Shown: one piece after another, positions 31,437 through 61,449 of the stretch
How the letters are laid out: every line of letters begins with the position of its first letter
How positions within the stretch are numbered: the stretch's first letter is position 1
Assembly: GCA_023252195.1 (NCBI GenBank)
Contig: JAHEXI010000008.1
Coordinates: 96,980 to 160,979, forward strand
DNA length: 64,000 bases
Source: Pseudonocardiales bacterium
GTDB lineage: Bacteria > Actinomycetota > Actinomycetes > Mycobacteriales > Pseudonocardiaceae
Direction: 5' to 3'
Translations under genes and position numbers: made by a program
The notes under the pieces: model-generated
What the model was told of the DNA's origin: nothing
The model's input: the letters and a program-made list of their open reading frames with translations, nothing else
Database searches by the model: none

Positions 31437-31450
31437 CGGGGCTGGTGCGT

Positions 31451-31525
31451 GTCGTGAACTCGACAGCACCGACCTTTTTCGTGCGCTCGCAGGTCGGTTT
31501 TGTCCGTGAACTCGACAGCACCGAC
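31451..31525. repeat. Family-B element locus B1: two direct copies of the left arm (one truncated element plus one solo arm)
   Basis: GTCGTGAACTCGACAGCACCGAC (31451-31473) ... GTCGGT(truncated) ... CGTGAACTCGACAGCACCGAC (31505-31525). Confidence 0.7.
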
Positions 31526-31618
31526 GTTCTTGCTGCTGCCTGTGGATGGTGCGGTGGGTGTGGATAGGTTGGCCTGCTAGAGGGCGCGTTGGCGGGGGCG
31601 TGGTGCAGGGTCTGAGGT

Positions 31619-32509
31619 GTGATCGACGAACTGACCCTCGGCGCTACGCCCTTCCGGGGATCCGGTGCTGTGCAGCGCGGGCTGCTCACCGAGCGGACGC
31701 TCCGCGGCCCCCGGTACCGGCGACTGTTCCCCGACATCTACCTGCTCGCCGATGTACCGACTGATCTCGCCACCCGATCGCAGGCGGCGCTGCTGCTCGT
31801 TCCGGGGCAGCGCGTACTGTCCGGTTACTCGGCAGCCGAACTGCTCGGGGCGGGTTGCGCGCCAGCGGAGGCTAACGCCGAGCTGACGGTGCCTGGCGGT
31901 GACTTCCGGGAACAACCGGGGCTCACTATCCACCGTGATCTGCTCGCGAACGACGAGATCGGCGACTGCGGCGGCGTCCCCGTCACTACAGCGCTGCGGA
32001 CGGCGTGGGACTTGGCCCGGTGGTTGCCCACAGTGGAGGCGGTGGTGGCGATGGACGCGCTGACCAGCGTTGGGCGGTTCACCTCGGCGACCGTGCTGCG
32101 CATCCAGGGTCGGTACCCGCGGGCGCGTTGGTGCCGTCGTGTCCCCGGGGTGATCGACCTGTCCGACCCCCGAGCCGAATCGCCCATGGAGACCCGCTCG
32201 CGGCTTGTGCTCGTGCTGCGCGGCCTGCCGCGTCCTGAACTGCAGTACACCGTGTACACGGCACTCGGGGAGTTCGTCGCCCGCCTGGACATGGCGTACC
32301 CGCTGCTGAAGCTGGCGATGGAGTACGACGGCCGGGGTCACCTCACCGCCTGGCAGCAGCAGTCTGATGCCCGCCGCCTCAACCGGCTGGACGCCTGCGG
32401 CTGGTCAGTACTCCGCTTCACCTCACCAGACGTCCTCCGCACCCCAGACGCCACAGCCGCCCAAGTCCGCGAGGCCATCGCGCGCCGCTCCCGGCGCTCC
32501 GTGTCGTGA
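31619..32509 (+). CDS. DUF559 (Vsr-like endonuclease fold) protein with AbiEi-like N-terminal domain
   Basis: C-terminal ESPMETRSRLVLVLRGLPRPELQY...LDMAYPLLKLAMEYDG..H...D..R.N.L...GW.VLRF is the DUF559 pattern. 296 aa. Confidence 0.8.
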   Translation: MIDELTLGATPFRGSGAVQRGLLTERTLRGPRYRRLFPDIYLLADVPTDLATRSQAALLLVPGQRVLSGYSAAELLGAGCAPAEANAELTVPGGDFREQPGLTIHRDLLANDEIGDCGGVPVTTALRTAWDLARWLPTVEAVVAMDALTSVGRFTSATVLRIQGRYPRARWCRRVPGVIDLSDPRAESPMETRSRLVLVLRGLPRPELQYTVYTALGEFVARLDMAYPLLKLAMEYDGRGHLTAWQQQSDARRLNRLDACGWSVLRFTSPDVLRTPDATAAQVREAIARRSRRSVS

Positions 32510-32567
32510 ACTCGACATTACCGACGGTTTTCGTGCGTTTATGCGTCGGTGGTGTCGAGTTCACGAC
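32503..32567. repeat. Family-B 65-bp palindromic element, copy B2
   Basis: GTCGTGAACTCGACATTACCGAC-19 nt-GTCGGTGGTGTCGAGTTCACGAC fills the gap between the convergent DUF559 and dprE2 genes. The TGA of DUF559 lies inside the left arm. Confidence 0.85.
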
Positions 32568-32572
32568 ACCGA

Positions 32573-33328
32573 TCAGATGGGGAGGCGGCGGAAGATGGGG
32601 CGGGGGACGTGGCGCAGGACGGACATGACGTGGCGCATGGGGGCGGGCGCCCAGGCTTGCTCGCGGCCGTTCGCGACGGCGTCGACGATGACCTCGGCGA
32701 CCTGCTCGGGAGTGACCGACAGTGGAGCGGCTTTCATGCCGGCGGTCATCTTGGTGTGCACGAAGCCCGGTCGGATCACCGAGACCTTGATACCCGCCGG
32801 GCGCAGCGCCTCGGTGAGACCGGTGTAGAAGGCGTCCAAGCCGGCTTTGCTGGCGCCGTAGGCGAAGTTCGACCGGCGGGGCCGTTCGGCGGCGGCCGAC
32901 GACAGTGCGACCAGCGTGCCGTGGCCTTGCCGTTGCAGCGCCTCGGCGAGCAGCACCCCGACCGACACGGCGCCTACGTAGTTGACCTGCGCGAGCTCGA
33001 CGGCGGTGGCGTGGTCGGTCCAGGCCTTCTCCTGGTCGCCGAGCAGCCCGAAGGCGACCAGGGTGAGGTCGATGTCGCCGTCGGCGAAGGCCTTCTCGAT
33101 CGTCGCGGCGTGCGATGCGGTGTCGGCCGCGTCGAAGGGCAGCGTCGTCACCGTGGCGCCGGCGCGGTCCAGCGGCTGCGCGGCGGCGTCCAGCCGCGGC
33201 GACGGGCGGGCGGCCAGGATCACCCGCAGCGGCCGCCGGGTGGCGTAGCGCTCCGCGGTGGCCAGCGCGATTTCGGAGGTGCCGCCGAGCAGCAGCAGGG
33301 ACTGGGGGTTGCCGACAGCATCGATCAC
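32573..33328 (-). CDS. dprE2: Decaprenylphosphoryl-2-keto-beta-D-erythro-pentose reductase
   Basis: SDR with [12 protein letters not shown], a YGASKAG catalytic motif, and an ATGA overlap with dprE1. 251 aa. Confidence 0.9.
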
Positions 33329-34677
33329 AGTTCGAGTCTCCTGGAGAGGTCAGAGGCGAAGATCCCGTCGGGGTCGGCGGCGGCGCGGACCTTGCGCCAC
33401 TCGTCGATCCGCGGGTACATGCGGTGCAGTGTGGCCGCGGACGTCCGTGACTCCTTGGCCAGGTAGAGCCGACCACCGGCGTCGAGCACCTGCTCGTCGA
33501 GACGGTCGCAGAACTCGGCGAGACCCTGGCGGATCGGGAAGTCCACCGTGATCGTCCAGCCGGGCTGGGGGAACGACAGCGGCGCCTGGCTGGCTTCGCC
33601 GAATCGTTTGAGCACGTTGAGAAACGACACGTGGCCTGATCGTGCGACCTGTTCCACGATGCCGCGGAAGGAGTCTTGCGCGCTCAGCGGTACCACGAAC
33701 TGGTACTGCAGGAACCCCCGTGAGCCGTACGCCCGGTTCCATTCGCCGATCATGTCCAGCGGGTGGTAGAAGGTGGTCAGGTTCTGTACCTCGCCGCGGC
33801 GGCGCTTCGGTGCCTTGCGGTACCAGGCCTGGGTCAGCGCGCCGAAGATCGCCCGGTTGGCCAGGCCGTTGGGGAACGCGTTGGGTGCGGTGAGCAGTTG
33901 CGGCGCGTCGAAGGCCAGCGGGGCGCGGCGCAGCTTCGGGGGCAGCTCGTCCCGCTGGGCGATGGAGCCGCGGGTGAGCACCGCGCGGCCCAGCTTCGCG
34001 CCGGTGGAGATCGCGTCGAACCAGGCGGCGGAGTAGTCGTAGCGGTCGTCGGAGCCGTCGGTGAGCAGCGCCATCAGCTCGTCGAGGTTGGCGGTGCGGT
34101 CGGTGTCGACGACGAAGTACGCCGACTCGACGTGGGTGAGCGCGATCGTGGCGCGCACGATGATCCCGGTCAGCCCCATGCCGCCGACGGTGGCCCAGAA
34201 CAGCTCGTCGTCGGGGGTCAGGGTAGCGACCGAGCCGTCGGCGGTGACCAGATCCAGGGACCGGACGTGATTGCCGAAGCTGCCCGCGCTGTGGTGGTTC
34301 TTGCCGTGGATGTCGGCCGCAATCGCGCCACCGACGGTGACCTGCCGGGTTCCCGGCAGTACCGGAACCCACAGACCGAACGGCAGCGCCGCGCGCATCA
34401 GCGCGTCGAGGCTGACTCCGGCGTCCACCACGGCCAGACCGCTGTCGGCATCGAGACAATGGATCCGGTTGTAGCCGGTCATGTCGATGACCAGCCCACC
34501 CGCGTTCTGTGCCGGGTCGCCGTAGGAGCGCCCCAGCCCCCGCGCGATCACACCCCGGCTGCCCGGATCCCGGACCGCCTGCTGAATCGACTCCAGAGTC
34601 GGCTGCACGAGCACCCGAGCACTGCTAGACGCAGTCCTCCCCCACCCACTCAACGCACGCACCACGATCTCAGACAT
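33325..34677 (-). CDS. dprE1: Decaprenylphosphoryl-beta-D-ribose 2'-oxidase (FAD-dependent)
   Basis: LSGWGRT...[10 protein letters not shown]...[30 protein letters not shown]... matches the DprE1 pattern. ATG 34677 gives 450 aa; the ORF is open to 34755. Confidence 0.9.
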
Positions 34678-34720
34678 CGCCCGCAGGCTACCTCCACCCC
34701 GACATGGGGGCATATCGGGG

Positions 34721-37700
34721 CTATCGGGCCTGGTATAGCCCCGACATGTCCCCATATCGGGAGGACGGGACGTGGCTGGTGGTGTGCTGGTAGGTGTCGT
34801 GGGCGGCGGTGTCGGCGGAGAGTTGTAGGGCGCCCCAGTCGACGTCGGGGTGGCCGATCAGGCGGGTGGGGACTTCGTAGAGGCGGCCGTAGGGGCGGAT
34901 CGCGGCGAAGTCGCCACCCTGGTCCTGGGCCGTGGTGATCGCCGAGAGCCGGCCGAGGCGGCGGGGCGCCTCGATCACCACCCGGGGCGCATCGGCCAAC
35001 CCGTCGGCGACCCCGACGATGTCGCGCACGCAGGGGAACAGGAATGCCTGCGGCCAGCTCACCAGCACCGGCCCGCGGCCTGCCAGGAACTCGTTGAACC
35101 CGACGACGCTGCGCAGCCGGGGACCGGTGACGGCCAGCCAACCGTCCGGGTCGGTGCTGGCATCGGTCGCGCGGATCCGGACGCGGTCCGCGCCGACCGG
35201 GATCTGCGCCGCGTCGAGCCCGATGGACCGCCACGGGAGATAGTCCGGTGGGCCGTCCAGATGGTCCTGGTTGAGACGTACCCGGTCGTACGGGACGCGG
35301 TCCCCCATCGTGGTGACGCCGCCGTACCGAGCGCGGCCGAACTCCAGAACCAGCTTGTTGCCCCGATCGGTACGGCCCGACACCGAGACCGCCACCCCAC
35401 TGGCCGTTGGCTGCCGGAACCACGGGCTGGTCAGGGTTCCGGTGCTCCGCGGTCCGCCGACCAGACTTCCCCAGAGCTCGGTGGAGATCCCGGTGCCGGG
35501 CGCGTCCGGTGGTGGCGCCGCGGGATCGAAGCCGGCCAGGGCGGTGAACCCGGTCAGTTGCTGCGCGGGACCGGGGCCGAACACGCCAACAGGGGACAGT
35601 ACGGGGCCGTCGGGCAGCACCTGGATGTCGTCGGCCAGGCCGCAGAACGGGCCGCCGGTCAGCCGATGCAGGTTCATTAGCGCGAGGGAACCGGCTGGCC
35701 GACGCAGCGGTGCGGCCAGCAACGAGCCGAGCAGTACCGCCACCGCGGTACCGGCCGCCGCCACCGCGAGCATTGCGGGCGTAGCGACCAGCGTTGGCCG
35801 GCTGACGCGGGCGGCGGCGAGCACCGCGTAACCCACCACCAGCGCGCCGAGCCACAGCAGTGGAGAGTCCAGCGGCAGCCCGATCGGGCGCACCGGGCCG
35901 GCTGCCCATGGCACGTCGTAGACCGCCGGCTGCCACCAGGCGTTCGGGCCGGCGAAGGCCAGCCCGGCTGCCGCGGCCACCAGTACGCCCCCGGCCACGC
36001 CGATCGTCTGGGACATCCGGTCGGCCCCCGGCGCCCTGGCGCGCCGCACCAGCAAGACCACAGCCAGCACCAGGAAGGATGCGAACAAGCCGGCCAGGGC
36101 GCCGAAGTGATGCGACCATTTCGACGGCGTCAACCACAGCAGCGCCAGTGCGGTGGCTACCACAGCAGCCGACCGCGCAGCGGCGCCGCCATAGACGTCG
36201 GCTCGCTCGGCCCGGCGGGCCAGCAGCACCCCGACCACCGGCAGTAGCGCGAGCGTGAGCAGAACCGGGATTCGTTTGGTAGCGCTGCCGTCCTGGTCAT
36301 TTCCGAGCAGGAAACGGTACCGGTCCGGCTCCTGGTACCAGGGCAGCGACGGCCCGAAAAAGGTGTGCCAGCGGGTCGCGGTCACCAGCCCATACCAGGT
36401 CTGGTCAGCGAAGATCACGGTAAGGCCGACCGCGCCGACGCAACCCAGAAGCAGCACCCGCGCCGCCACCTCAGCCCGCCCGCGCGCCGACTCGCGCAGG
36501 ATCGCCACGGTGCGCGGCGCGAACACCACGATCGGGGCGGCGACGAGCAGTCCGCTGGGGCTGATCGGGATGGTCAGTCCGGCGACCAGTGCAGCCCACC
36601 CCAGCGCGGGGAGTCCACGAGCTCGCCACAGCAGCGCCAGTACAGCGGTGACGCCGAACGCCACGTACGGCTCGGGGCGCACCCCGAGGTTGTAGGGCAG
36701 CCAAGCGGCGAGCAGGCACACCGCCGCCAGCAGCCGGATCCGGACGGTGCCCGCCACCGCGGGCAGCGCCGCGCCGAGCACCCCCCGGCTCAGCACGAAC
36801 CAGGTCGCGATAGCCAGCACGGTGCTGGGCAGCCGCAGCCACAGCGGCGCCAGGCTGATCTGGGTCAGCGGGGCGAGCAGTTGCTCGGTCAGCGCGAACG
36901 GTGTCTCCGAGGCGTTCCACCACCGGTAGTAGTTGCCGATGTTGCCGGTCCGCGCGGCGTTGCGGGCGATCGTGGTGGCGAAGCCGTCGTCGTCGGTCAG
37001 CGGACCGATGATCGCCCAGCCGGCCAGTACGCTGAGCACTCCCACGTCGACCCAGGCCGTGCGCCACCAACCGATGCGTGGGCGCGCGGGATCCTTGGCA
37101 GCACGACGAGCGCGGGCCAGCAGGCCGAGCCCGATCAGCGCGGTGAGCAGTTGCGCGGCGATGAGAACGATCTTGACCCGGCTCGGGCTGGTGGCGAATG
37201 GGCTGGCGATGCGGGCGGTAACGGCCATCCCAGCGGCTTGCCCGGCGTCGAGGTCGGTACGGAAGGCGAACACCTTGGGCACCGGTTCATCGGCCAGCTT
37301 GATCGTCTTAGTGCTCCCGATGGTGATCACTGCACCGGTCGGGTCGGCGTGCACCTGGGTCCGGCAGTCGCTGAAGGTTCCGGCCACCGGCTGGGTGCTC
37401 ACCACCCGGCGACCCAACACCAGCTGGGCCACGCCGGCTTCGGTCCGCAGCACCAACCCTTCCCCGTCCGGGCCGGTCGCCAGCACGGTGACGACACCGC
37501 CCCGGTCGGTCGCGGCGCGAATCGCCGAACACGGCACCGTCGCAGTCAGCTCCGCCGGCCGGTACGGCGCGAAAAACGCCGTACTCGACACCACGGGGTG
37601 CTGAGGCGCGGGCCAGGTCACCGCGGTCTGGTCCGCGATCACTGGCAGGAACGGCAGCACCAACGCCACCAACACCCCCAGCAGTCCCACCAGCAAGGCG

Positions 37701-37795
37701 AGTGCGGTGCCGGTAGACCGATGCGCAACCCTGGACAGCGCCAAGCCTCCCGCGGCGATCGTTCCTACCTCAGCTCTACCGTTCCCGAACTCCAC
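34721..37795 (-). CDS. Emb-family GT-C arabinosyltransferase, paralog 1
   Basis: About 1024 aa. First-loop DD motif [28 protein letters not shown], 13+ TM helices and a C-terminal carbohydrate-binding domain. The annotated GTG start lies inside repeat A2, so the true start is uncertain. Confidence 0.9.
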
Positions 37796-37844
37796 AGCAG
37801 AGCTGCCAGATCCTCCTCAGACAACTCTGTTGTGGAGTTCGGGA
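37781..37844. repeat. Family-A 64-bp palindromic element, copy A2
   Basis: GTTCCCGAACTCCACAGCAG-26 nt-CTGTTGTGGAGTTCGGGA lies between the helD stop and the Emb paralog 1 start. Confidence 0.85.
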
Positions 37845-37867
37845 TGCTGAGAGTACCGAGAGGCGCG

Positions 37868-40198
37868 TCAGGCGAGGTTGGGGGCGAGCACAGGGGGCAG
37901 GTCGCTGGGGTGCACGATGCACAGCCGTTGCGTCGAGCGGGTCAGAGCCACGTAGAGGTCGTTGAGACCGCGGGGTGACTCGGCCACGATCGCCGCCGGA
38001 TCGACCAGCACGACCGCGTCGAACTCCAGGCCCTTGGCCTGGTGCACGGTCAGCACGGTCACCGGTGCATCGAGGTCGTCGACGCCCGGCGCGCTCTGCT
38101 CTGATGACCCCAAGATCGTGCGCAGCTCGTCCACCCCAGCCGCCGGCGCGAGCACGGCGAGCCGGCCGTCGCCTACCGCGGTGGCCTCCTCGGCGACCAC
38201 CGCGGGCAACTCGTCGGCCAACGAGCCCACCCGAACCGCGCGGGGCGCCACGCCGCTGCGGCGCACCGACCGCGGCGGCGTGATGTCGACGTCGATGGCG
38301 GCTAGCACGCGGTCGGCGAGCTCCGCGATCTCGGCCGGGTTCCGGTAGTTGATCGTCAGCTCTTCCAGGTGCCACCGCTGCGCCACGTACGGACCGAGCA
38401 CGTCCTGCCACGAGGCCGCGCCGGCCCGGGACCCGGTCTGAGCGAGGTCCCCGACCACCGTCATCGAACGGCTCGGGCAGCGCCGCATGAGCACTCGCCA
38501 CGCCATCGGGGACAGCTCTTGGGCCTCGTCGATGATGATGTGACCGTAGGTCCAGGTGCGGTCCGCCGCGGCGCGCTCAGCGGTACTCTCGTAGCCGCGC
38601 GCCCGCTGCCGGTCGGCCAGCCGGTCGGCGTCGATCAGGTCGGTGGCGCGCAGCAGCTCAGGGTCGAGGTCCTCGTCGAGGTCCAGGATGTCCAGCACGC
38701 CCTGGGCGTACTGCAACTCCGCGCGCAGCGCGGCGGCCTCCCGGGCGGCCTCGGTGCTGCCGTCGGAGCCGAGCAGCTCGGCGGTCTCGTCCAGCAACGG
38801 CACGTCGGCGGGGGTCCACACCAGCTCGGGGTCGACGTCCGGGCTGGGCGCGGATCGCGCTAGCAGGTCGCGTTCCTGGTCCGGTAGCACCCGGTGGGTG
38901 GCGCTGGCCAGCCGCTGCGGATCGAAGTAGAGGTCGGTGAGCAGCTGCTCCGGCGACAGCGTGGGCCACAGCGTGTCCAGCGCAGCGGTCAGCTCGGGGC
39001 TCCCCCGTAACTCGGTGCGGATGTCCGCCAGGTCGCCACGGTTCAGAACGTCGCCGCCCAGGCCGTTGGCGATGCGGTCGGCGAGTACCGTCACGACCTC
39101 CTGGTGAAAGATCCGCTTGGCCTCGTTGTGTGGCCGGTGCGAACGCCGAGCCCTGGTGCGAGCCGGCTGGCACACCGCGCTGTCGAGCTGGATTCGCTGG
39201 GCCTCGACGGTGAGCTCGATCGGTTCGGTGGGTACCTGCTGGCGGTCCCGGATCGCTGCGGCCAGCACCTTCGCCATCTCCAGGCGACCCTTGACGGCGG
39301 CGGTCTCGTCGGGCTCGACGCCGCGGGCGTGCAACCCCGGATGCAGCTGCGCCACCGTGCACAGCAGCACGCTGGTCTCGCCTAGGGAGGGCAGCACGTG
39401 CCCGATGTAGCGCAGGAACGTCGAGTTGGGCCCGACGACCAGCACGCCGCGCTTGGCGAGCTGTCGGCGGTGGGTATAGAGCAGGTACGCGGCCCGGTGC
39501 AGCGCGACCGCGGTCTTGCCGGTGCCCGGCCCACCCTGGACGACGAGCACTCCCTGCGGCTTGGCCCGGATGATCCGGTCCTGCTCAGTCTGGATGGTCG
39601 CGACGATGTCGGCCATCTGGCCGGTGCGGCTCGCCGTCAGCGCGGCCATCAGCGCCGCCTCGCTGGTCAGGCTGACCCGGGTGGCGCTGTGCTCGACACC
39701 ACCGTCAGGTAGCACGTCGAGCACTTCGTCCTCGACGGCGAGCACCGTCCGGCTCCGAGTCCGGATGTGTCGGCGGCGGCGAACACCCTCGGGGCGCGCG
39801 GCGGTCGCGGTGTAGAACGGGCGGGCCGCGGGTGCCCGCCAGTCGATCAGCAGCGGTCGGTAGTCGTGTTCCTCGTCGAGCAGTCCGAGCCGCCCGATGT
39901 AACGCAGACCGTCCTCGTCATCGTCCTCATCACCGGAGCTGTGCAGGTCCAGCCGCCCGAAGCACAGGCCCTGCTCGACGCCGTCGAGGGTGGCGAGTTG
40001 GTCTGCGTACATCGCGGCGGCGGCGTCGCGTTCGCTGCGCGCTTGGGGGGTGTTCGCGTTGGGTGCTCTCAGGACTTGGGTGAGCCGCCCCACGGTGTAG
40101 CGGCGGCGCTCATCGAGATGCTGGTAGAGCAGGGTGAGGTAGTCCTGCTCTGCCGCCACCACGTCGGGCGTTGTTGTGGGAACCGACACGCGATGCAA
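37868..40198 (-). CDS. helD: HelD/HelR-type UvrD-like SF1 ATPase (RNA polymerase recycling/protection factor, actinobacterial class II)
   Basis: N-terminal RYIGRLGLLDEEHDYRPLLIDWRAPAARPFYTATAARPEGVRRRRHI, Walker A VVQGGPGTGKTAVALHR, IIIDEAQE, and C-terminal VHQAKGLEFDAVVLV. 776 aa. Confidence 0.85.
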   Translation of the reverse strand: MHRVSVPTTTPDVVAAEQDYLTLLYQHLDERRRYTVGRLTQVLRAPNANTPQARSERDAAAAMYADQLATLDGVEQGLCFGRLDLHSSGDEDDDEDGLRYIGRLGLLDEEHDYRPLLIDWRAPAARPFYTATAARPEGVRRRRHIRTRSRTVLAVEDEVLDVLPDGGVEHSATRVSLTSEAALMAALTASRTGQMADIVATIQTEQDRIIRAKPQGVLVVQGGPGTGKTAVALHRAAYLLYTHRRQLAKRGVLVVGPNSTFLRYIGHVLPSLGETSVLLCTVAQLHPGLHARGVEPDETAAVKGRLEMAKVLAAAIRDRQQVPTEPIELTVEAQRIQLDSAVCQPARTRARRSHRPHNEAKRIFHQEVVTVLADRIANGLGGDVLNRGDLADIRTELRGSPELTAALDTLWPTLSPEQLLTDLYFDPQRLASATHRVLPDQERDLLARSAPSPDVDPELVWTPADVPLLDETAELLGSDGSTEAAREAAALRAELQYAQGVLDILDLDEDLDPELLRATDLIDADRLADRQRARGYESTAERAAADRTWTYGHIIIDEAQELSPMAWRVLMRRCPSRSMTVVGDLAQTGSRAGAASWQDVLGPYVAQRWHLEELTINYRNPAEIAELADRVLAAIDVDITPPRSVRRSGVAPRAVRVGSLADELPAVVAEEATAVGDGRLAVLAPAAGVDELRTILGSSEQSAPGVDDLDAPVTVLTVHQAKGLEFDAVVLVDPAAIVAESPRGLNDLYVALTRSTQRLCIVHPSDLPPVLAPNLA

Positions 40199-40278
40199 TC
40201 CACCTTCTGCGCTTCGACGGGGAACCTGGCACTAGAACCAGTGGGCGGCTTCGGGCATTCCAAGACACCGCGGGCCTT

Positions 40279-40335
40279 CAACTCTACAGTTCCCGAACTC
40301 CACAGCTGCAGGCCGAGGGCCTGCCAGATCTCCTC
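40279..40335. repeat. Family-A element, partial copy A3 (left arm and internal segment only)
   Basis: CAACTCTACAGTTCCCGAACTCCACAGCTGCAG..CTGCCAGATCTCCTC shares the internal CTGCCAGATC(C)TCCTC with A2. No right arm was found. Confidence 0.6.
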
Positions 40336-51390: not shown

Positions 51391-51430
51391 GCCCCTCGCG
51401 GAACACCTCCCCCTCGTTTCCGCGAGGGGC
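51391..51430. terminator. Hairpin between convergent GtrA and Emb paralog 4
   Basis: GCCCCTCGCGGAA-14 nt-TTCCGCGAGGGGC is a 13-bp perfect stem. Confidence 0.5.
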
Positions 51431-51475
51431 CCCACATGGGCCCGGGATTCCTTGAGTGAGTCACCTCCCGGTCGA

Positions 51476-54400: not shown

Positions 54401-54799
54401 GACCTGCAGCACCATCCCGACCGCGGCACCGTCGGTCGACCCGGGCGGGGTGGTGGCCAGCAGCGAGGCAGGCTGCGGCGACCGCGCATCCAACGAGACT
54501 GCCGCAGCGCACGGGATCGTGGCGGTCATGTTCTGCGGCTGGTAGGTGACCAGCGGCGCGTTGACCGGCGCGAGGTCTCCCGAGCGTGGCCAGGTGATCA
54601 CGGTGGTGTCCTGGATCACCGGCAGCAGCGGCACCGCAATGGCGAGCAGAGCTCCGAGCAGGCCGAAGAATGCCGCGGCGAACCCGAGTAGCCGGGAGCC
54701 GCGGTTGCGCTTGTTGCCAGTGTCGGCGGTCGGATCGGTAGCGTCGCCGCCAGTACTCGAGCGGCGGCGCGAGATCTCGATGTGCCCAGAGGTCAGCAC
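51476..54799 (-). CDS. Emb-family GT-C arabinosyltransferase, paralog 4 (longest; EmbC-like length)
   Basis: 1107 aa. Has GGITSDDGYILTMIRTRA, LTPTKWTHHF and a C-terminal CBM-like domain. Confidence 0.9.
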   Translation of the reverse strand: MLTSGHIEISRRRSSTGGDATDPTADTGNKRNRGSRLLGFAAAFFGLLGALLAIAVPLLPVIQDTTVITWPRSGDLAPVNAPLVTYQPQNMTATIPCAAAVSLDARSPQPASLLATTPPGSTDGAAVGMVLQVDAGKLTLISRGQALGNVLLSTIPPSPRQCMIQVSSDARGTTASAGALRFVKVDQDVRPQVTGIYSALIDQRDPVRGLAVRITADTRFQSVPHPIKLAAIAAAVLAVLVSLILMHRLDRRIGRRAPRVLPSGWWRPTGRDAAVLAVLAVWVVIGGITSDDGYILTMIRTRAEMGYIGNYYRWFNAPEAPFSWPYELYALWSQISTVPPWLRLPSFAMGGVSWMLISREVMPRLGREVRRSAAAGWAAAAVFLAFWLPYNNGLRLEPVVAIGSLLALCGVERAVATRRVLPLALALLAAAFTVAATPTGFIAIAPFLVSLRPLVRLVRQHITVSGRAAVLGPILGAGLLVLVVCFADQTLAGVLEASRIRTEIGPNLSWFQEPMRYEELFSNLPDGALARRFPVLLLLLCLGTTGVVLLRRGRIPGAGLGPSRRLIGTAGASLVLLALTPTKWTHHFGAFASIGAALAALTALTASSSVLRSARNRWWFLSGLLVILAMSATGPNAPWYVSQYGVPWYDKPPSVHGIQASTLLIVGAVLAGLIAVIEGLRHEPGAVPPPGPPQPQRRNGRRRALLIGSAPLAVFCGLLVLAEVGAMAKAIVKQRHGYSMGAANFAEITGHSCNLTDAVLVEADRRAGALRPLRTTLLADIPLQRGFETNRSPLEQALPTSPPSQLTGSGTNDRADNQGARGDRIPKPGDDGSNPVDKPPIGLGGPEIPIWSSFSPDTPGTGILRSTWYALPAAARQGTAPVVVSVAGRLSATTPLVAEFARRTDRGFRVVDHMEIGGRATADGPGWRDYRLGLAGRASAGADAVRLVATDADVTDDGWLAFSAPRVPVLSSLTDLVAPTPPVFLDWPVGFVHPCVRPFAIRNGIAEIPQYRLLPDKMLANDSKSWSAADAGGPIGWLQILATQQEVPTYLKENWDTDWGKLMVIQPRVPDAEAPVLQTGTAVRSGWWSPGPLRSGGQTAEISQLGR

Positions 54800-54890
54800 G
54801 CCAGGAGGCTAGCCCAACGGGACTAACCCCATACCCCCCGTCCCACTACATTGACCAGAACGTTACGACCCGCGCACTGTGGGCGCACCA

Positions 54891-55772
54891 TCAGTGCCGG
54901 TAGAAGCGCTCCGCGCGCCCTTGCCGAAGCAGCTTGAGCCACTGCCGGAAGGCCCGCGGGTCCCGCTTGGTGCCCAGGAAGTACAACCCGAATCGGAACA
55001 CTTCGAGCATTCCGATCCGTCGCATGCCGGGCTGCGACAGTAGGTAGCCGCGGTTGCGGTAGGTGTAGTAGCGCTTGATCTCGTCGGTGGGGTCCTGGGC
55101 GTGGAAGTGCCCACGCAGCATCGGCTTGAACTCCGCTGAGCCGTCCGGGTGCGCGTAGGAGGCCCGCAACGTCGTGCCGAAGCGCAGCCCGGAGCGGACC
55201 ACCCGGCGGTGCAGTTCCACCTCGTCGCCCCGGACGAACAGCCGGTAGTCCGGCACCCCGACGACGTCCAGCGCGTCAGCGCTGAACAGCGCGCCGTTGA
55301 AGAAGCTCGCGATGCCGGGCAGGAAGTCGGTCCCCAGTTCGCTGCGGCGGCGCTTCCAGGTCAGCCCCCGGCGCAGCGGGAACGCCAGCCGTTCCGGGTC
55401 ATCGATGTTGACCACCACCGGGGAGATCACCGCGAGGTCCCGGCGCTTGGCCTCCTCGAGCAAGGTCTGCAGGACCCGGACGTCGGCGGGGCAGCCGTCG
55501 TCGTCTGCCAGCCACACCCAGTCCGCGCCCAGGGCCAGGGCGTGCAGGATCCCCAGCGCGAACCCGCCCGCGCCACCCAGATTGCGCAGCGAGGGCAGGT
55601 ACGTCGACGGGATCGGGCAGTCCGCGACGACGTCGTGGGCCGGGTCGTCCGGGCCGTTGTCCACCACCACCAGCTGGTCCGGTGCCCGGGTCTGCGCCGC
55701 GATCACCGCCAACGACTTCCCTAGCAACTCCCGCCGGTGCCGCGTCACCACAACGGTGACCACCATGGTCAT
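54891..55772 (-). CDS. glfT1: Galactofuranosyltransferase GlfT1 (GT2, Rv3782-like)
   Basis: ATG 55772 overlaps the rfbE stop (ATGA). Has VVVTRHRRELL..., VVVDNGPDD and WLADDDG. rfbD-rfbE-glfT1 synteny. 293 aa; the ORF is open to 55913. Confidence 0.85.
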   Translation of the reverse strand: MTMVVTVVVTRHRRELLGKSLAVIAAQTRAPDQLVVVDNGPDDPAHDVVADCPIPSTYLPSLRNLGGAGGFALGILHALALGADWVWLADDDGCPADVRVLQTLLEEAKRRDLAVISPVVVNIDDPERLAFPLRRGLTWKRRRSELGTDFLPGIASFFNGALFSADALDVVGVPDYRLFVRGDEVELHRRVVRSGLRFGTTLRASYAHPDGSAEFKPMLRGHFHAQDPTDEIKRYYTYRNRGYLLSQPGMRRIGMLEVFRFGLYFLGTKRDPRAFRQWLKLLRQGRAERFYRH

Positions 55773-56572
55773 CTGGTTGCTTCCGCGACGCGGGTGAGGG
55801 CTTCTGGGCTGAGGTTCTCGTAGGGGTCTTTGCCTTTGTAATGGGACAGCACTGCGCGCAGGTCGCCCTGTTCCCGGATCTGTCCGTGGTCGAGCCACAA
55901 CCCGGAGCTGCACAGCTCGATGAGGAACTCGTCGGAGTGTGAGGCGAACACCAGAATTCCGGATCGCTCAACCAGCGCGGTGAGCCGCTCGCGGGCCTTC
56001 TCCAAGAACGCCGCGTCCACCGCGCCGATACCCTCGTCGAGCAGCAGGATCTCCGGGTCGATGCTGGTCACAACCCCTAGCGCGAGCCGGACCCGCATGC
56101 CGGTCGAGTAGGTGCGCAGCGGCATCGACAGGTAGTCGCCCAGTTCGCTGAACTCGGCGATCTCCTCGGTGCGGGCCTCCATTTGCTTGCGGGTCATCCC
56201 CAGGAACAGCCCGCGGATGATGATGTTCTCGTAGCCGGAGATCTCCGGGTCCATGCCGACGCCCAGGTCGAACACCGGGGCGACCTTCCCGACGATCCGG
56301 GAGACGCCCATGGTCGGCTCGTAGATCCCGGACAGCAGCCGCAGCAGGGTCGACTTGCCCGCCCCATTGTGCCCGATCAGACCGACCCGGTCGCCGTGGC
56401 GCAGCGACAGGGTGATGTCCCGCAGCGCCTCGATGACCGGCACCTTGGCGTCCATCCCGATCTTGCCGCCGGCCCGTCCTACGGTGCCCAGCAAGGCCTT
56501 CTTCAACGACCGGGTCTTCGCATCGAAGATCGGGAAGTTGACGCAGGCACCGCGCACGTCGATGGAGACCAT
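55769..56572 (-). CDS. rfbE: ABC transporter ATP-binding protein (Wzt/RfbE-type polysaccharide export)
   Basis: Walker A GHNGAGKST, signature YSTGMRVRL and Walker B ILLLDE. 267 aa. Confidence 0.9.
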   Translation of the reverse strand: MVSIDVRGACVNFPIFDAKTRSLKKALLGTVGRAGGKIGMDAKVPVIEALRDITLSLRHGDRVGLIGHNGAGKSTLLRLLSGIYEPTMGVSRIVGKVAPVFDLGVGMDPEISGYENIIIRGLFLGMTRKQMEARTEEIAEFSELGDYLSMPLRTYSTGMRVRLALGVVTSIDPEILLLDEGIGAVDAAFLEKARERLTALVERSGILVFASHSDEFLIELCSSGLWLDHGQIREQGDLRAVLSHYKGKDPYENLSPEALTRVAEATR

Positions 56573-56595
56573 GATCTTTTAACACCCAGTCCTGA

Positions 56596-57456
56596 TCATA
56601 CCCAGTAGGAGACTCGGGCCCGGTAGTTGCGCAGGATCAGTAGTGCTGCCGCCCACCCCACCACAGTGATGGCCAAGGTCACCACCCAGTGCCGGGGTTC
56701 GAACGACTGACCGATCATCGGGCGTCGCAGGATCTCGACGAAGTGCAGGAACGGGTTGAGCTCGGCCAGCCGGGCCCGCTCCGCTCCCGGACCGCCCTTG
56801 CTGATCAGATCCTGGTAGTTCCAGACGATCGGCGTCATGAAGAACATCAGGGTGACGACGCTGGTGGTCACCGGGGGGATGTCGCGGTAACGGGTCGCAA
56901 TGATCCCGATCAGGATCGCCACCCAGGCCCCGTTGAGCACGATCACCGCCAATGCCGGCAGCGCCATCAGGCTGCCCCACCCCAGGTGCGTTCGGAAAAT
57001 CACCACCAGGGCCGCCCAGACCAGCACGTTATGCCCGAAGAACAGCAGTTGTCGCCAGACCAGCCGGAACACATGCACACTCAGCGGCGCGGGCAGATGC
57101 TTGATCAGGCCCTCGTTGCGGATGAAGACCTCGGCGCCTTCGTTGATGCAGCTCGCCATGAACTGCCAGATAATCAGCCCGACGGCCAGGTAGGGCAGGA
57201 AGAACGCGATCGGTTGACCGAACAGTGCCGCATAGAGCAGCCCCATACCCAGCGCCTGGACTCCCAGGCTGATCGTGATCCACAACGGTCCGATCACCGA
57301 GCGCCGGTAACCCTGCCTGATGTCCTGCCAGCCCAGATGGCCCCACAGCCGACGTTGCTGCCAGCCGGCCCGCAGATCACCGAATGCCCGAGACCAGCTC
57401 CGGGATGACAGCGCCCGGTCCGCGGTGATCTCCGGTGCCGCTGCGGTGTACTGCAT
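56596..57456 (-). CDS. rfbD: ABC-2 type transporter permease (Wzm/RfbD-type)
   Basis: ATG 57456 gives 286 aa with 6 TM helices (..YRRSVIGPLWITISL..). The longer ORF (to 58050) reads through repeat A5 and is rejected. Confidence 0.85.
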   Translation of the reverse strand: MQYTAAAPEITADRALSSRSWSRAFGDLRAGWQQRRLWGHLGWQDIRQGYRRSVIGPLWITISLGVQALGMGLLYAALFGQPIAFFLPYLAVGLIIWQFMASCINEGAEVFIRNEGLIKHLPAPLSVHVFRLVWRQLLFFGHNVLVWAALVVIFRTHLGWGSLMALPALAVIVLNGAWVAILIGIIATRYRDIPPVTTSVVTLMFFMTPIVWNYQDLISKGGPGAERARLAELNPFLHFVEILRRPMIGQSFEPRHWVVTLAITVVGWAAALLILRNYRARVSYWV

Positions 57457-57537
57457 GGTCCGCGAGGGTACCCGTGCGGTCTCCGGACCCCCGGCCTGCG
57501 GGTGCGCCAGCCGCTGCCCGCGCCCGGTCCACCAAGC

Positions 57538-57601
57538 TTCCCGAACTCCACAGCGGAGCTGTCCGACGTTGATCAAACAGCGCTGCTGTGGAGTTCGGGA
57601 C
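57538..57601. repeat. Family-A 64-bp palindromic element, copy A5
   Basis: CTTCCCGAACTCCACAGCGGAGCTGTCC-11 nt-ACAGCGCTGCTGTGGAGTTCGGGAC lies 82 nt upstream of the rfbD start. Confidence 0.85.
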
Positions 57602-57649
57602 ACCCAGAGTTCGGGGGACGCAGGGCACGCGAGTGCGGAGGGGGGAACT

Positions 57650-58122
57650 TTGCGCTTGGGTACCACGGTCGTCTCGGCGTTCAGCGCGCTGACGGTCGCG
57701 GCACTGGGACCCGGTGTCGCCCCGGGCGGCGCCGCTGCGCAGACGACGTCGACGTTCCAGCAGCGGCGACCCACGTCACGGCGGCGGCCGTGGTCGCGGC
57801 CTCCGCGGTGGTGGAGAAGTGCCCGCGGGCGGGCGGCAACTCGCTGGTGTCTTCGGCGAACACCGCCTATCCGGCGCACCCGGATGACGTGCAGCGCTTC
57901 TGCCGGTATCTGACCGAGGTCTGTGATAGCACTACTTCGGCTGAGGTGGTCGAGGCCTACGTCCAAGGGTTGGTCCAGCTGCCGGGGTGGCTGACCGGCC
58001 TGCCCGGTGGACGGCCACGGGGCTGCTCGCTGGCGGGTGCTGGTCAGCACCGCGCCGCCGGCTTGCTTTGCTTCCCAAATCGGGCCGGTGTCCAGGAGGT
58101 CAGCGCCTCCTCGCTCTGCTAA
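57650..58122 (+). pseudogene. Small secreted Cys-rich protein, apparently frameshifted near 57725-57745
   Basis: TTG 57650 lies 5 nt after GGAGGGGGG. Signal peptide LRLGTTVVSAFSALTVAALGPGVAPGGAAAQ is in one frame. The high-GC3, protein-like continuation DDVDVPAAATHVTAAAVV...EKC..RFC..EVC... is in another frame, ending at 58122. Confidence 0.35.
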
Positions 58123-58184
58123 CGGGAGTGTTGAACAGCTGCTAACGGATTTTTTGGCCGGCTGCTAATGGGCGGGCTCCTCGT
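58116..58184. repeat. Three phased direct repeats CTGCTAAYGG with an exact 23-bp period
   Basis: Copies at 58116, 58139 and 58162, between or overlapping the convergent 3' ends. A T6 run lies in unit 2. Confidence 0.5.
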
Positions 58185-59409
58185 TGACGTCGAGGTCGGG
58201 TTGTTCGGCGTAGCTGAAGGTGATGGGGGCGACCTCGGTGCGCGGGTGGTACGAGGGGTCGAGCCGGACGAGGTCCCACTCGTTGATCCAGGCCCGCACG
58301 TACTGGCGCATCCGGGTGGTGCCCAGGCGTTCCAAGCCGGTCACCTCCGGGGCGTTCCAACCGAATGCCTCGGAGTGCAGGGCCTTGAGCCGCTGGTAGG
58401 CGTAGTCGAGCTCGTCGGCGTCGGGGGTGGTGAGCAGCAGCATGTCGCGCTCGATCAGACCCATGGCGGTCTGCGCCCGGGTGGCGATCTCGTCCCATTC
58501 GGCTACCTGCTTGGCGCGCAGCTTCGCCGGGACCACCTCCCGGTCGTTCTTCGCCGTGAGCACCGCGGCGTCGAAGTCGTCGGTCATGGCCAGCACGGTC
58601 GCCAGCGGCGACGCGGGGTCGTCAGTGTCGGGTTGCAGCCACTGGGCCAGCTCGGCGTAGGAGCGGCCGCGTTGCTGCAAGGTGTAGCGCCCGATCAGCT
58701 CGACCTCGTCGAACAGCAGTACCCAGCCCTCGCAGCCGGCGGTGACGAGCAGCCGGGCCAGGAAGCGGAATCGCTGACGGGCCAGCTCCCGCGCGGGCAC
58801 CGGGGCCAGCGCCGGACGTCCCAGCCCGGCGAACTTGGCGTGCCGGCGTACTTCAGCGACGGCCAGACGATCCCCGGACCAGAACCTGACGATCGCGTCG
58901 GCGAAGTTGTCCTCGCTGGCCTGCACCCGCGGGAACAGGGTCAGCGTCAAGGGAAACCACTCGTCGACCGGGGCGCCGGCGCCACCGGCCCAGCGCACCA
59001 GCTCGGCGAAGGCCACGCCGTCGGGATCCAGGCCTGCGGCTGCCTCGGCCATCGCGCCGACCGACCCGTCGGGCAACACCGCGGATTCCACCGCGGCGCG
59101 CAGCACCTTGGCCGGGTCGTGCAGCGGCGTCTCCTTGCTGACCACGATGCGGCTCACCGCGTACCCGCGGTCCAGGGCCAGGTGGGTCAGGTGTTCCAGG
59201 ACGTGGCTCTTGCCCGCGCCGAACCCGCCACCGAGCAGCAGCCCCCGTGGTCCGGAGCGGACCTGACCGATCCCGTCGATCAAGGTGGTGAACCGGTCCT
59301 CGATGTCGGACTGGCCGCTGCCCAGCGCGGTCACCGCGTCCCTGCTGGGCACCCCCGCCCGCAGGGCCTCGACCGCGCGCCGCGCGGTGAGCCGGACCGA
59401 CGTATTCAT
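58165..59409 (-). CDS. DUF2791/BrxC-BrxD(PglY)-type P-loop ATPase (third gene of orphan cassette)
   Basis: ARRAVEALRAGVPSRDAVTALGSGQ.., Walker A LLLGGGFGAGKSHVLEHL and Walker B GWVLLFDEVELIG. 414 aa. ATGA overlap with the upstream gene. Confidence 0.7.
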   Translation of the reverse strand: MNTSVRLTARRAVEALRAGVPSRDAVTALGSGQSDIEDRFTTLIDGIGQVRSGPRGLLLGGGFGAGKSHVLEHLTHLALDRGYAVSRIVVSKETPLHDPAKVLRAAVESAVLPDGSVGAMAEAAAGLDPDGVAFAELVRWAGGAGAPVDEWFPLTLTLFPRVQASEDNFADAIVRFWSGDRLAVAEVRRHAKFAGLGRPALAPVPARELARQRFRFLARLLVTAGCEGWVLLFDEVELIGRYTLQQRGRSYAELAQWLQPDTDDPASPLATVLAMTDDFDAAVLTAKNDREVVPAKLRAKQVAEWDEIATRAQTAMGLIERDMLLLTTPDADELDYAYQRLKALHSEAFGWNAPEVTGLERLGTTRMRQYVRAWINEWDLVRLDPSYHPRTEVAPITFSYAEQPDLDVNEEPAH

Positions 59410-60413
59410 CGAACCACCTCCAGGCGGGTCTCCAGCCGGACCAGCGCGGCGAACGGGTTGGCGCGGCGGCGGTCCCGGATCTCGTCGACGACCCGCAGGT
59501 GCAGGGCGCTGTAGGCGGGCAGGCCACGGGTGTCGTCAGTGACCAGCTCAGGTGGCACCGTCACCGCGACGAACGCGCTGCGCAGGTTGTCGGTGGCATC
59601 GACGAGCTGGCGCAGCACCTCGTAGGCATCGAGCACTGCGGCCTTGCTGTAGTAGTGGCCGGCGCGCTGTTCCAGCGGGGGGCGGCGGGCAACTGCGAGC
59701 CGGCTCAGGTCGACGTCCAGTACCAGGCCCGACCCCGTGACGCGGGCCCGCCACGCCGCCAGCGACACCAGCAGCGACCGCGCGTTGTGCCGGGCGACCC
59801 GCCCGTACAGGGTTGCGGACTTCAGCATCCGCAGTGCGACCGGCTCGACCCGCAGCCAGGCCAGCACCGCATCGCGTTCGGTGTCGAGGACGTCGCCGGT
59901 GGCGAGCTCGCACTGGCACAGCCGCAATACCGCCAGCCGGAACTCCCGGTCCAGCGACGGGTCGCGCAGCAACGCGGCCTCCAGGTGCCGGCGCATGCTC
60001 CGGGCAGCCTCCGGCACGGCGACGTCGTGGTGCGCGGCGACCGTGGCCACCGCCAGCTCGTCAGGCGCGGACGGGGGCAGACCCAGCGATTCCCACCCGG
60101 CGCGCACCTGGCGTCGTGCGAGATCGCACCAGTCGACCTGGCGGGCGACGGCGGCGAAGACCTGATCGATCAGGTGCACCCGGTGATCCGCCGCGTCCAC
60201 CGCGACGCACAGGTAGCCCTCTGCGTCGGCGATGGACGCCAGGCTGCGGTGCCAGCGAACCGCAACCTCGTCGCTGCCGGCCACGACGAAGCGCACCGCG
60301 GCCCCGCCAGCGCGGACGTAGTCGCCCAGGTACTCCTTGGCCACGAATTCGGCGTACTCCTCGGGTCCCAACCCGATCCCGCCCGCAGGCAGGCCGCCAC
60401 GGATCTCGCTCAC
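59406..60413 (-). CDS. Hypothetical protein, apparent Walker-A-less paralog of the adjacent ATPase (second gene of cassette)
   Basis: 335 aa. AVRFVVAGSDEVAVRW..AEGYLCVAVDAA..VHLIDQVFAAVA aligns by eye to the ..LLLGGGFGAGKSH..DRGYAVSRIVVS..LHDPAKVLRAAV core of the ATPase. GLVLDVDLS sits at the Walker-B position. GTGA overlap upstream. Confidence 0.55.
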   Translation of the reverse strand: MSEIRGGLPAGGIGLGPEEYAEFVAKEYLGDYVRAGGAAVRFVVAGSDEVAVRWHRSLASIADAEGYLCVAVDAADHRVHLIDQVFAAVARQVDWCDLARRQVRAGWESLGLPPSAPDELAVATVAAHHDVAVPEAARSMRRHLEAALLRDPSLDREFRLAVLRLCQCELATGDVLDTERDAVLAWLRVEPVALRMLKSATLYGRVARHNARSLLVSLAAWRARVTGSGLVLDVDLSRLAVARRPPLEQRAGHYYSKAAVLDAYEVLRQLVDATDNLRSAFVAVTVPPELVTDDTRGLPAYSALHLRVVDEIRDRRRANPFAALVRLETRLEVVR

Positions 60414-61300
60414 CCTGTGTCCTCCTCACCCCGACCGGACTCACTGCCGGTAGGGCCCGACTCGACCGCGATGCCCCAGTACCGCTGTTGCTGCCCGCTC
60501 ATGGCCACCGTGGTGAGTACACCGGCCTGGCGGGTGCCCGAACTCGCAGCCCAGCGCAGCCGCCGCCCGCCGGGACCGGCGGTCTCACCGCTCTGGTCGA
60601 GCAGGTACAGATCGCGGGCGAACTCGGCGCGGGTGTAGTCCCGGGACTGCCCGGGCAGCAGCGTCAGAGCGTTGTAGACCTCAAGCAGCCGCACCACCGA
60701 GCCCGGCGGCTTGGCCTGCCCGGCGACGACGAGATCGTAGGCGCCGACCAGGCTCGCCAGGAACGGCGCCGGCTTGAACCGGGGCCCGGCCCGCTGTGCC
60801 TTGGCGAGCTGTGCGACCACGACCGATGGTCGGATCCCGCGGGCCCGCTTGCGGTCGATCTCCAGCGCGAGGTCGCCGGGCAGCACCCGCACGATCGACG
60901 GGTAGCACAGCAGCCGGTCGTCCTCGGCGAACATAGCGACGTCCGCGGCTTCGGCCTCGGCGAGCAGCTCCTTGGCGTAAGCACCAGAGCCGAGCATGTC
61001 GACTTCGTCGACGTCGTAGGCAGTGGCCGCAGCGCCCACTCGCTGCACGACCTCACCGGCCATCGCCTGCACCGCGTCCAGGGCCCGGCGCAACTCCCTC
61101 ACCTGGCCCGACGCGGCCGCAGCGTGGGCCCGCTTCAGCTCGCGAGTCAGCGAGGCGACGGCCTTGCTGCTGGTCTCCACCGCACGCTCCACCCTGGTGA
61201 GCGCGCCCTCCAGACCGGCCGTGTCCTGGCTGCTGCTTGCTTCCTCGTCCTGCATGGGCGACAGGGTATCCACCAGCTCGCCGCACGATGCCCCGCCCAC
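60410..61300 (-). CDS. Hypothetical coiled-coil protein (first gene of cassette)
   Basis: 281-296 aa (GTG 61300 or ATG 61255). The N-terminal helical/coiled-coil half reads LTRVERAVETSSKAVASLTRELKRAH... The C-terminal half is globular (..VVRLLEVYNALTLLPGQSRDYTRAEFARDLYLL..). I recognise no family. Confidence 0.55.
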   Translation of the reverse strand: MGGASCGELVDTLSPMQDEEASSSQDTAGLEGALTRVERAVETSSKAVASLTRELKRAHAAAASGQVRELRRALDAVQAMAGEVVQRVGAAATAYDVDEVDMLGSGAYAKELLAEAEAADVAMFAEDDRLLCYPSIVRVLPGDLALEIDRKRARGIRPSVVVAQLAKAQRAGPRFKPAPFLASLVGAYDLVVAGQAKPPGSVVRLLEVYNALTLLPGQSRDYTRAEFARDLYLLDQSGETAGPGGRRLRWAASSGTRQAGVLTTVAMSGQQQRYWGIAVESGPTGSESGRGEEDTG

Positions 61301-61384
61301 ATGCCTGAGTTGAGATTGCCGCTCGACGCGGGGTCTTCGGCAGCGTCGCCCCGAGATCGTCGGGGTGCGCCGAAGACGGTCGCT

Positions 61385-61449
61385 GCCGTGAACTCGACGG
61401 TACCGACATTTCGCTGGGCGAAAAGGTACGTATTGTCGAGTTCACGGCA
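61385..61449. repeat. Family-B 65-bp palindromic element, copy B4
   Basis: GCCGTGAACTCGACGGTACCGAC-19 nt-GTACGTATTGTCGAGTTCACGGC lies in the divergent spacer between the cassette and the CocE-like gene. Confidence 0.8.

Follow-up and report, generated by a model that had tools for sequence, protein, structure and literature searches.

Mobile palindromes and a probable DUF559 partner gene in the variable spacers of a Pseudonocardiaceae cell-wall gene cluster

We analysed a 64,000-nucleotide stretch of DNA (the window; G000:C26:96980-160979) from an uncultured soil actinomycete that belongs to an uncultured genus of the Pseudonocardiaceae. In a 30-kb region of this window, genes for arabinogalactan synthesis alternate with unrelated genes and with copies of short palindromic repeats. 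We find that the cell-wall genes are collinear across the genus, that the spacers between them hold cargo even in genomes almost free of the repeats, and that the palindromes are mobile, fragile and matched, family by family, to clades of DUF559 proteins. The account that we favour, and think reasonably probable, is a layered one of permissive spacers, expanded mobile palindromes and a DUF559 gene that is the partner of one palindrome family. A sequence-only reading of the same DNA had proposed that repeats of two families, A and B, stand at every islet border and act as recombination or insertion hot spots through which accessory genes colonise the locus; its observation is mostly confirmed, and its interpretation is partly supported.

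Results

Cargo in the spacers between collinear cell-wall genes

The source genome (G000) is a 48-contig bin of 4.74 Mb with 69% G+C, 97.8% completeness and 0.62% contamination. We searched DNA across 40 members of the genus and drew gene-and-repeat maps for 16 relatives, so that the mapped comparison is between species of one genus and not between strains. Genes were identified by profile matches to Pfam, NCBIfam and PADLOC, and repeats by iterated nhmmer. Positions are those of the window unless another contig or a stretch numbered with L is named.

The genes named by the sequence-only reading are present where it had placed them, every one confirmed by Pfam and NCBIfam (Table 1), and the cell-wall genes among them are collinear in the 16 mapped relatives. 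Five junctions are variable: ubiA/dprE2, emb-a/helD, helD/emb-b, emb-b/emb-c, and that between the ABC permease gene and the genes downstream. In other species the same five junctions hold 3-20 kb of different cargo. The expectation that islets vary around a collinear core was borne out for the major facilitator superfamily (MFS) pump, the CPA1 antiporter, VapBC and a three-gene ATPase cassette, but not for helD, which is fixed. Only one mapped relative, G012, has the pump, and only G012 has the ATPase cassette in the cluster, G044 lacking it at this site. CPA1 is found in the cluster of the nearest kin only, G039, G044, G045 and probably G012, and elsewhere in other genomes, while VapBC is found there in G012 and G045, as a remnant in G039, and also in the distant G050 and G051. 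The emb-b/emb-c junction accordingly exists in several states, namely CPA1 only (G044), CPA1, a family B copy and a vapC remnant (G039), vapBC only (G050), a single B (G004) and nothing (G006).

A family A or B copy stands at five of the eight outer islet borders and not, as had been claimed, at all of them: the MFS/emb-b, emb-b/CPA1 and vapB/emb-c borders carry no repeat of any family, and no repeats of other families were found in the repeat-free spacers of the region. Of the copies that had been counted, B3 separates CPA1 from vapC instead of marking an outer border, A3 amounts to half a copy, and A4 is inside the emb-c frame. A family D copy between two core genes, emb-a and dprE1, had been overlooked. 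The related expectation that empty sites keep one repeat was correct for the emb-b/emb-c site of G004, for a half B in G050, and for a collapsed A2 and probably remnants of A5 in G044. We rejected the cassette site of G044 as a clean one-repeat empty site, as the 158 bp of DNA found there are unrelated and no more than 15 nt could be left of family A. The stretch at 57611-58164, read as a putative small secreted pseudogene, is unique to G000 and G012.

Two relatives, G052 and G002, have near-zero counts of A and B arms and a third, G001, has few, yet at these junctions they hold different cargo of 5-16 kb, and no long hairpins were found at the borders of that cargo in G002 and G052. In G050, which counts 0-2 arms for either family, VapBC occupies the same place and has no repeat there. 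Because cargo occupies the same junctions in genomes nearly without A and B, colonisation does not depend on the repeats, and the junctions are hot spots even where these are missing. The sequence-only reading had allowed that the same cargo at the same place in repeat-poor relatives would tell against it, and helD and VapBC show this pattern. Its view of the repeats as hot spots is upheld to the extent that structural variants end within them, but not by the cargo of the repeat-poor genomes. We suggest that the spacers between operons tolerate change, with small modules gained, lost and left to decay in every species while the core remains collinear, and that the spacers would fill up because only they tolerate insertions.

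Mobile and fragile palindromes

Families A and B, as described by the sequence-only reading, are real and lie where it had located them. All full copies of either family fold into long hairpins (z = -5.7 to -7.1 in five of the six folded, -2.9 for B3), and the two families have a common core, GAACTC(C/G)AC(A/G)GC. In the 4.74 Mb of the genome, nhmmer located family A at 56 loci and family B at 61; counts of repeats inside genes, which depend on a crude GC3-based gene caller (2769 genes called), were left out of account. At that rate a 30-kb stretch should hold 0.74 copies. The region has eight, besides the half copy A3, and nowhere else in the genome are they so dense; the second-ranking 30-kb window has four copies, and the Poisson chance of the density in the region is about 1e-6 per window. 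Further families, C, D and E, are likewise dispersed in G000, the arm of family D having 22 matches in the genome. All five are dispersed, mostly intergenic short palindromes, a trait that they share with repetitive extragenic palindromic (REP) elements. Across the genus, family A arms occur in about half of the genomes and family B arms more widely, and exact matches to the family A palindrome are confined to metagenome bins labelled Pseudonocardiaceae or Pseudonocardiales.

Individual copies recur at set positions in some species and are missing from others. The copy at the B1 position, decayed in G000, is intact in G048, G049, G006 and G013; B2 has the same position in G004, G005, G006, G040, G046 and G049; and A2 is present in G012 and G045, with a family C palindrome in its stead in G006 and G049. 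Outside the cluster, the A copy at L091:2005-2085 is missing in five relatives, in which the flanks abut, and the B copy at L092:16944-17009 was found only in G000 and G012. At L091:1990-2100 (G000:C31:37262-37372), the inserted A parts a stop and a start codon that overlap in five relatives (GCTGATGCTGAGC); with the insert a stop, and an ATG for the gene downstream, are formed anew, which is reminiscent of mycobacterial MIRU elements inside operons. The family D palindrome between emb-a and dprE1 (CCCCGACATGGGGGCATATCGGGG...) overlaps the annotated start of dprE1 (34755), so that the real start is probably further downstream.

The copy designated A4 forms, in an alignment of the paralogues, an in-frame insert of 29 residues, which lies in a variable loop of emb-c. 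In a codon alignment the insert is common to G012, G039 and G004, with none in G051 and G047; nhmmer also detects A4 within emb-c of G006, G045, G049 and G044, and in G052, G048 and G046 the loop has other lengths. Rickettsia palindromic elements are palindromic repeats inserted in frame in coding genes. Like these and other in-frame miniature inverted-repeat transposable elements, A4 is a palindrome in frame in a coding gene and has been kept through speciation, with the difference that a single clear in-frame case was checked here.

Structural variants end inside the repeats. In G044 and G039, A2 has collapsed through an internal deletion, GTTC..GTTC. The A3 copy stops at the hairpin tip in G000 but already at GTTC in G012, beside different DNA in each (1 kb of other DNA in G012). 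A deletion in G039 starts inside B1 and takes out most of the DUF559 gene, and the assembly of this genome breaks at A4. G044 is without 57523-61518, B4 included; its homology ends at 57522, exactly the outer edge of A5, and it keeps a possible remnant of the right end of A5. In L092-L094 there are further islets that have B and A at their borders. At one C-type locus, two C palindromes and a gene in G012 correspond to a single C palindrome in G000, and of an A-type locus G000 retains a single arm; in all, three DUF559 paralogues kept by G012 have been lost from G000. The palindromes are therefore mobile, as the clean presence/absence sites show, and fragile, as deletions end inside them, and the data show losses at the repeats, not gains. 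As long palindromes present in many copies, they are places where deletions and rearrangements end. We picture these 65-90-nt elements (A, B, C, D and E) as non-autonomous mobile passengers that would settle in the same permissive spacers, once in frame in emb-c, and would also seed deletions. No insertion sequence with palindrome-type ends was seen, and the only gene found alone between two like copies is that for DUF559.

The window upstream of the 30-kb region contains another small islet, since 5.8 kb (4578-10394, holding A1) is absent from G004 and G045, where the flanks abut, and an overlapping 4.4 kb (about 5980-10357) is absent from G044.

A DUF559 gene and its cognate palindromes

The DUF559 gene at the ubiA/dprE2 junction had been taken for unrelated cargo, a view that we abandon, as the gene always accompanies family B. 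Orthologues of at least 77% identity have family B alongside in 17 of 17 loci, on both sides in most and on one side as detected in G047 and G004, and B-type genes in three other contexts (G047:C26, G009:C110, G015:C51) still have B next to them. More distant paralogues have other palindromes: genes of a clade at 53-59% identity lie between copies of family A or of its sister family A2, clades near 40% identity have family C or D, and a paralogue at 28% has family E. The D-type gene, cognate to the D palindrome, is at 117.5 kb of G000:C41. We also observed that in G032:C169 (L133:2137-3294) the ubiA/dprE2 junction holds an A-type paralogue between two A copies in place of the B-type unit, so that one junction is host to different members of this family of genes and palindromes.

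On an IQ-TREE phylogeny of 39 homologues, the flank labels need six changes, which is the minimum; shuffled labels need 20.6 on average, and none of 200 shuffles was as low. This test includes kin that share labels, and the comparison within genomes is the stronger control. Paralogues in one genome have different palindromes, B, A, A2 and C in G012, B, A and A2 in G046 and G015, and B, D and E in G000. Protein clade thus matches palindrome family one to one for B, A, A2, C, D and E. An absence of any link, suggested by G000 paralogues without family B nearby, was dropped as a reading once these paralogues proved to have families of their own. In the genus search each genome has one match of at least 77% identity, the remaining matches falling in other clades. 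Beyond the genus, 98 of the 121 genomes in an order-wide sample have a DUF559-type gene, some as many as 13 copies. Matching hairpins flank the gene on both sides at 14 of 29 loci from other genera, with a sequence particular to each genus, and the two such palindromes that were tested are dispersed in their own genomes.

The B-type protein consists of an AbiEi-like winged-helix part and a Vsr-type PD-(D/E)XK nuclease part. An AlphaFold2 model of its 290 residues has a mean predicted local distance difference test score (pLDDT) of 88.6 and matches the folds of Rv2827c (1zel), I-Bth0305I (3r3p) and NGO0050 (3hrl), 1zel being the best match for the N-terminal two thirds and 3r3p for the C-terminal 100 residues. 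The acidic residues D224, E235 and D250 are invariant in 26 paralogues. The AbiEi antitoxin Rv2827c and the Vsr-type homing endonuclease I-Bth0305I thus supply matching folds for the two parts, whereas here the parts are fused and tied to dispersed palindromes, a combination that was not found in the literature searched; a search for DUF559 or AbiEi together with repeats, and for palindromic repeats in Pseudonocardiaceae, returned nothing relevant. No AbiEii toxin gene adjoins the DUF559 gene, which stands alone between B1 and B2. The locus is for this reason not an AbiE (type IV) toxin-antitoxin system, and the C-terminal part of the protein is a nuclease, not the usual AbiEi C-terminus. Most likely, to judge from location and co-phylogeny, the DUF559 gene is a partner gene of the palindromes and not cargo. 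It lies between copies of its own palindrome, much as RAYT genes lie between REPINs, and the predicted nuclease probably binds and cuts the cognate palindrome.

Composition of the cluster and its accessory genes

The features of the region are collected in Table 1. The cluster is of the mycobacterial arabinogalactan/arabinan type, containing a DprE1/DprE2 pair, a UbiA-type DPPR synthase, Emb GT-C enzymes (Pfam scores of up to 614 bits), and GlfT1 with an RfbD/RfbE-like ABC transporter. The mycobacterial arabinogalactan locus (dprE1-dprE2-aftA-embCAB, ubiA-glfT2, glfT1-rfbDE) draws on the same enzyme families (UbiA, DprE1/E2, Emb GT-C, GtrA-like, GlfT1 and the ABC pair). In a genome from another family, G030, a compact, mycobacterium-like cluster has three contiguous emb genes and no helD, whereas in G000 four emb paralogues are split by helD and cargo. 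Within the genus, dprE2 and dprE1 are 82-96% identical, and the block from gtrA through emb-d and glfT1 to the ABC pair (50781-57500) is unbroken in 15 of the 16 mapped relatives, the exception being G013, with inserts of 5.3 kb and 2.1 kb. Emb copy number in the cluster is not constant: the mapped stretch of G001 yielded a single paralogue, whereas G052 has two, G002 three or four and G000 four. In G048, emb-a is inverted relative to the others.

Table 1. Genes and palindromes of the cell-wall region and its surroundings, in window positions
Feature	Position	Strand	Evidence and remarks
A1, family A	9055-9134		outside the 30-kb region
glfT2-like and PAP2 genes	27977-30531		directly upstream of ubiA
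ubiA-type prenyltransferase, core	30528-31436	+	Pfam PF01040; 82-95% identity in mapped relatives having the gene
B1, two decayed family B copies	31450-31504 and 31505-31538		upstream of DUF559; nhmmer 41 and 28 bits; no stable fold
B-type DUF559 gene	31619-32509	+	Pfam DUF559, PADLOC AbiEi
B2, full family B	32502-32569 (within 32491-32580)		between stops of DUF559 and dprE2; 58 bits; hairpin z = -6.7
dprE2, core	32573-33328	-	Pfam
dprE1, core	33325-34755	-	Pfam
Family D palindrome	34697-34761		between emb-a stop and dprE1 start; hairpin scan
emb-a, Emb-family arabinosyltransferase	34721-37795	-	Pfam PF04602, PF14896, PF17689
A2, full family A	37773-37853 (within 37770-37858)		between helD and emb-a; 71 bits
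helD, HelR-like RNA-polymerase recycling ATPase	37868-40198	-	NCBIfam HelR_2 738 bits and HelD_MYCSM 664 bits, both under cut-off
A3, left arm only of family A	40278-40306		left edge of MFS islet
DHA2-type MFS efflux pump, variable islet	40561-42054	+	TIGR00711, 257 bits
emb-b, Emb-family	42101-45130	-	Pfam
CPA1 antiporter	45294-46787	+	Pfam
B3, full family B	46780-46845 (within 46776-46856)		between CPA1 and vapC
VapBC (PIN/AbrB; vapC, vapB)	46866-47554	-	Pfam
emb-c, Emb-family	47557-50757	-	Pfam; holds A4 in frame
A4, family A	49126-49205 (within 49122-49207)		in frame inside emb-c; 29-residue insert
gtrA	50781-51248		Pfam/NCBIfam
emb-d, EmbC-like	51476-54799		Pfam/NCBIfam
GlfT1	54891-55913		NCBIfam equivalog, 488 bits (cut-off 330)
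ABC ATPase and ABC-2 permease (RfbD/RfbE-like)	55769-57500		ABC_tran, ABC2_membrane
A5, full family A	57532-57609 (within 57525-57610)		upstream of ABC-2 permease, left edge of cassette islet; 68 bits
Three-gene BrxD-like ATPase cassette, accessory, sharp ends	58165-61300	-	Pfam, PADLOC; NCBIfam BrxD N-terminal match (last product)
B4, full family B	61384-61449 (within 61377-61449)		divergent spacer before CocE/NonD hydrolase gene (61542-63497); 58 bits

The placement of helD beside emb-b or dprE1 in all 16 mapped relatives, including those almost without A and B, marks it as a fixed member and not an islet, contrary to the sequence-only reading; helD is part of the cluster in this genus. A motif, CACTAGAACCAGTG, upstream of helD (40199-40280) is conserved in all close relatives and occurs three times in G006, and may be an operator for the HelR-like gene.

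The ATPase cassette is also present in seven other genomes (and in pieces in an eighth), in unrelated contexts and with sharp ends. We ruled it out as a repeat-bordered mobile unit, as no A or B copies adjoin it in those seven genomes. Its DNA identity of 90-94% (94-99% for the middle protein) exceeds the 75-87% of the core cell-wall genes, and its context differs in almost every genome. The high identity together with the ever-changing context suggests that the cassette is exchanged within the genus.

Discussion

We considered three other explanations for the arrangement. That the A and B copies are recombination or insertion sites admitting accessory genes, with cargo arriving because the repeats are present, strikes us as unlikely. 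It would explain the repeats at five of the eight borders, the single B at the empty emb-b/emb-c site of G004, the variants that end within repeats, the loss of a gene between two like palindromes that leaves one copy, and the islets bounded by B and A elsewhere in the genome. It would not explain the three borders without repeats, the ATPase cassette in seven other contexts without A or B, or the 5-16 kb of cargo at the same junctions of G052, G002 and G001, and what is seen at the repeats is loss and not gain. Many islets, moreover, are bounded by two different families, between which recombination by homology cannot occur. Nor is this an integrase-borne genomic island, as there is no integrase among the called genes of the window, the window has no tRNA genes, and the borders carry different repeat families or none.

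Less probable again is the idea that the palindromes are regulatory hairpins of the host, such as terminators, attenuators or stabilisers of mRNA that selection keeps at operon boundaries, so that islet borders simply reflect the ends of operons. The hairpins are indeed very stable, many species have B2 where DUF559 and dprE2 converge, between their stops, and the palindrome in the emb-a/helD spacer belongs to family A or to family C depending on the species. However, other copies are found in spacers with divergent promoters (A3, B4), ahead of a gene (A5), where a stop and a start codon overlap, and in frame in emb-c; they have no U-tract, an Rfam scan of the window gave no family match, they are cleanly present or absent among close relatives, and terminators are not expected to bracket nuclease paralogues family by family. 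We give very little credence to an assembly artefact, in which a chimeric metagenome contig was joined at repeats. The bin does consist of 48 contigs and repeats do break the assemblies of relatives, as in G039, but G012, G045, G039, G044 and G004 independently have the same gene order across the same junctions, the composition of the window is even along its length, and contamination is low.

The layered account fits these observations better in our judgement, and several points weigh against it. Every relative is a fragmented metagenome bin. Possible target duplications of 4-7 nt (GCTGAT; CGCG(G)TCA) at two filled-versus-empty sites are suggestive only, being two cases. Outside the cluster, about seven of 12 copies in four 20-kb stretches coincide with an end of an indel of 1-6 kb, where the background is roughly 0.3, in a sample that comes from windows chosen for repeat density and is not a whole-genome test. 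About half of the 29 order-wide loci are without matching hairpins, and G000 has the most family A arms of the sample (77) yet no A-type gene. AbiEi-type proteins bind inverted repeats in regulating their own promoters, which fits the upstream copy of a palindrome, not the downstream or dispersed ones.

The arrangement of DUF559 genes and palindromes resembles the REPIN/RAYT systems of Proteobacteria (Bertels & Rainey 2011, PMC3116915; PMC3337134). RAYT genes have their own flanking repeats and a one-to-one tie to a repeat family; a genome has several partner genes, usually a single copy per type, inherited for the most part at a fixed locus (PMC3337134). DUF559 loci share the short dispersed palindromes, the bracketing by their own repeats, the one-to-one family tie, the several distinct partner genes in a genome, the one gene copy per type and the mostly fixed position, so that DUF559-type genes are found in RAYT's place. 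The partner, however, is an AbiEi-like part joined to a Vsr-type nuclease and not an HUH/Y1 IS200-like transposase, the elements are single 65-90-nt palindromes and not REP doublets, the host is an actinomycete, and the pairing is known here from its arrangement. The Y1 transposase family PF01797 has no match in G000 (six of 14 control genomes matched), which makes the present system an analogue of REP/RAYT and not a member. It is an open and serious possibility, for which we stop somewhat short of belief, that AbiEi-like/DUF559 nucleases are the cognate enzymes of an unrecognised REPIN-like class across the Mycobacteriales, each spreading or maintaining its own family by a homing-like route and not by an HUH mechanism, and that the density of repeats in the cluster is partly due to the B-type gene.

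The cargo calls for a different comparison. Minimal mobile elements of Neisseria were reportedly described by Saunders and Snyder in 2002 and by Snyder and colleagues in 2007. Such elements (as defined in PMC3082526) are matched here by whole-gene cassettes that differ between the same two conserved genes at five junctions in 16 relatives, cargo being gained, lost and left to decay between collinear genes. The present case differs in that the comparison is between species and not strains, that the junctions lie inside one essential biosynthetic cluster, and that the pattern is known from the positions of the cassettes and not from recombination in their flanks.

These findings bear on the cell-wall locus and on DUF559 proteins alike. 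The cluster analysed here is among the most plastic regions of its genome, with a variable number of Emb paralogues, a built-in HelR-like gene and a repeat translated within one Emb protein. The DprE1 and Emb enzyme families are drug targets in mycobacteria, and the locus is commonly pictured as rigid and syntenic. For DUF559 proteins, present annotation goes no further than "DUF559 domain-containing protein" or "very-short-patch-repair endonuclease". If they are indeed the cognate enzymes of the palindromes, a very common actinobacterial protein family would gain a testable function, a second and mechanistically different example would be added to the lasting repeat-enzyme partnership for which REPINs and RAYTs are so far the sole known case, and both the origin of dispersed palindromes in high-GC actinomycetes and the fact that they mark gene loss would be explained.

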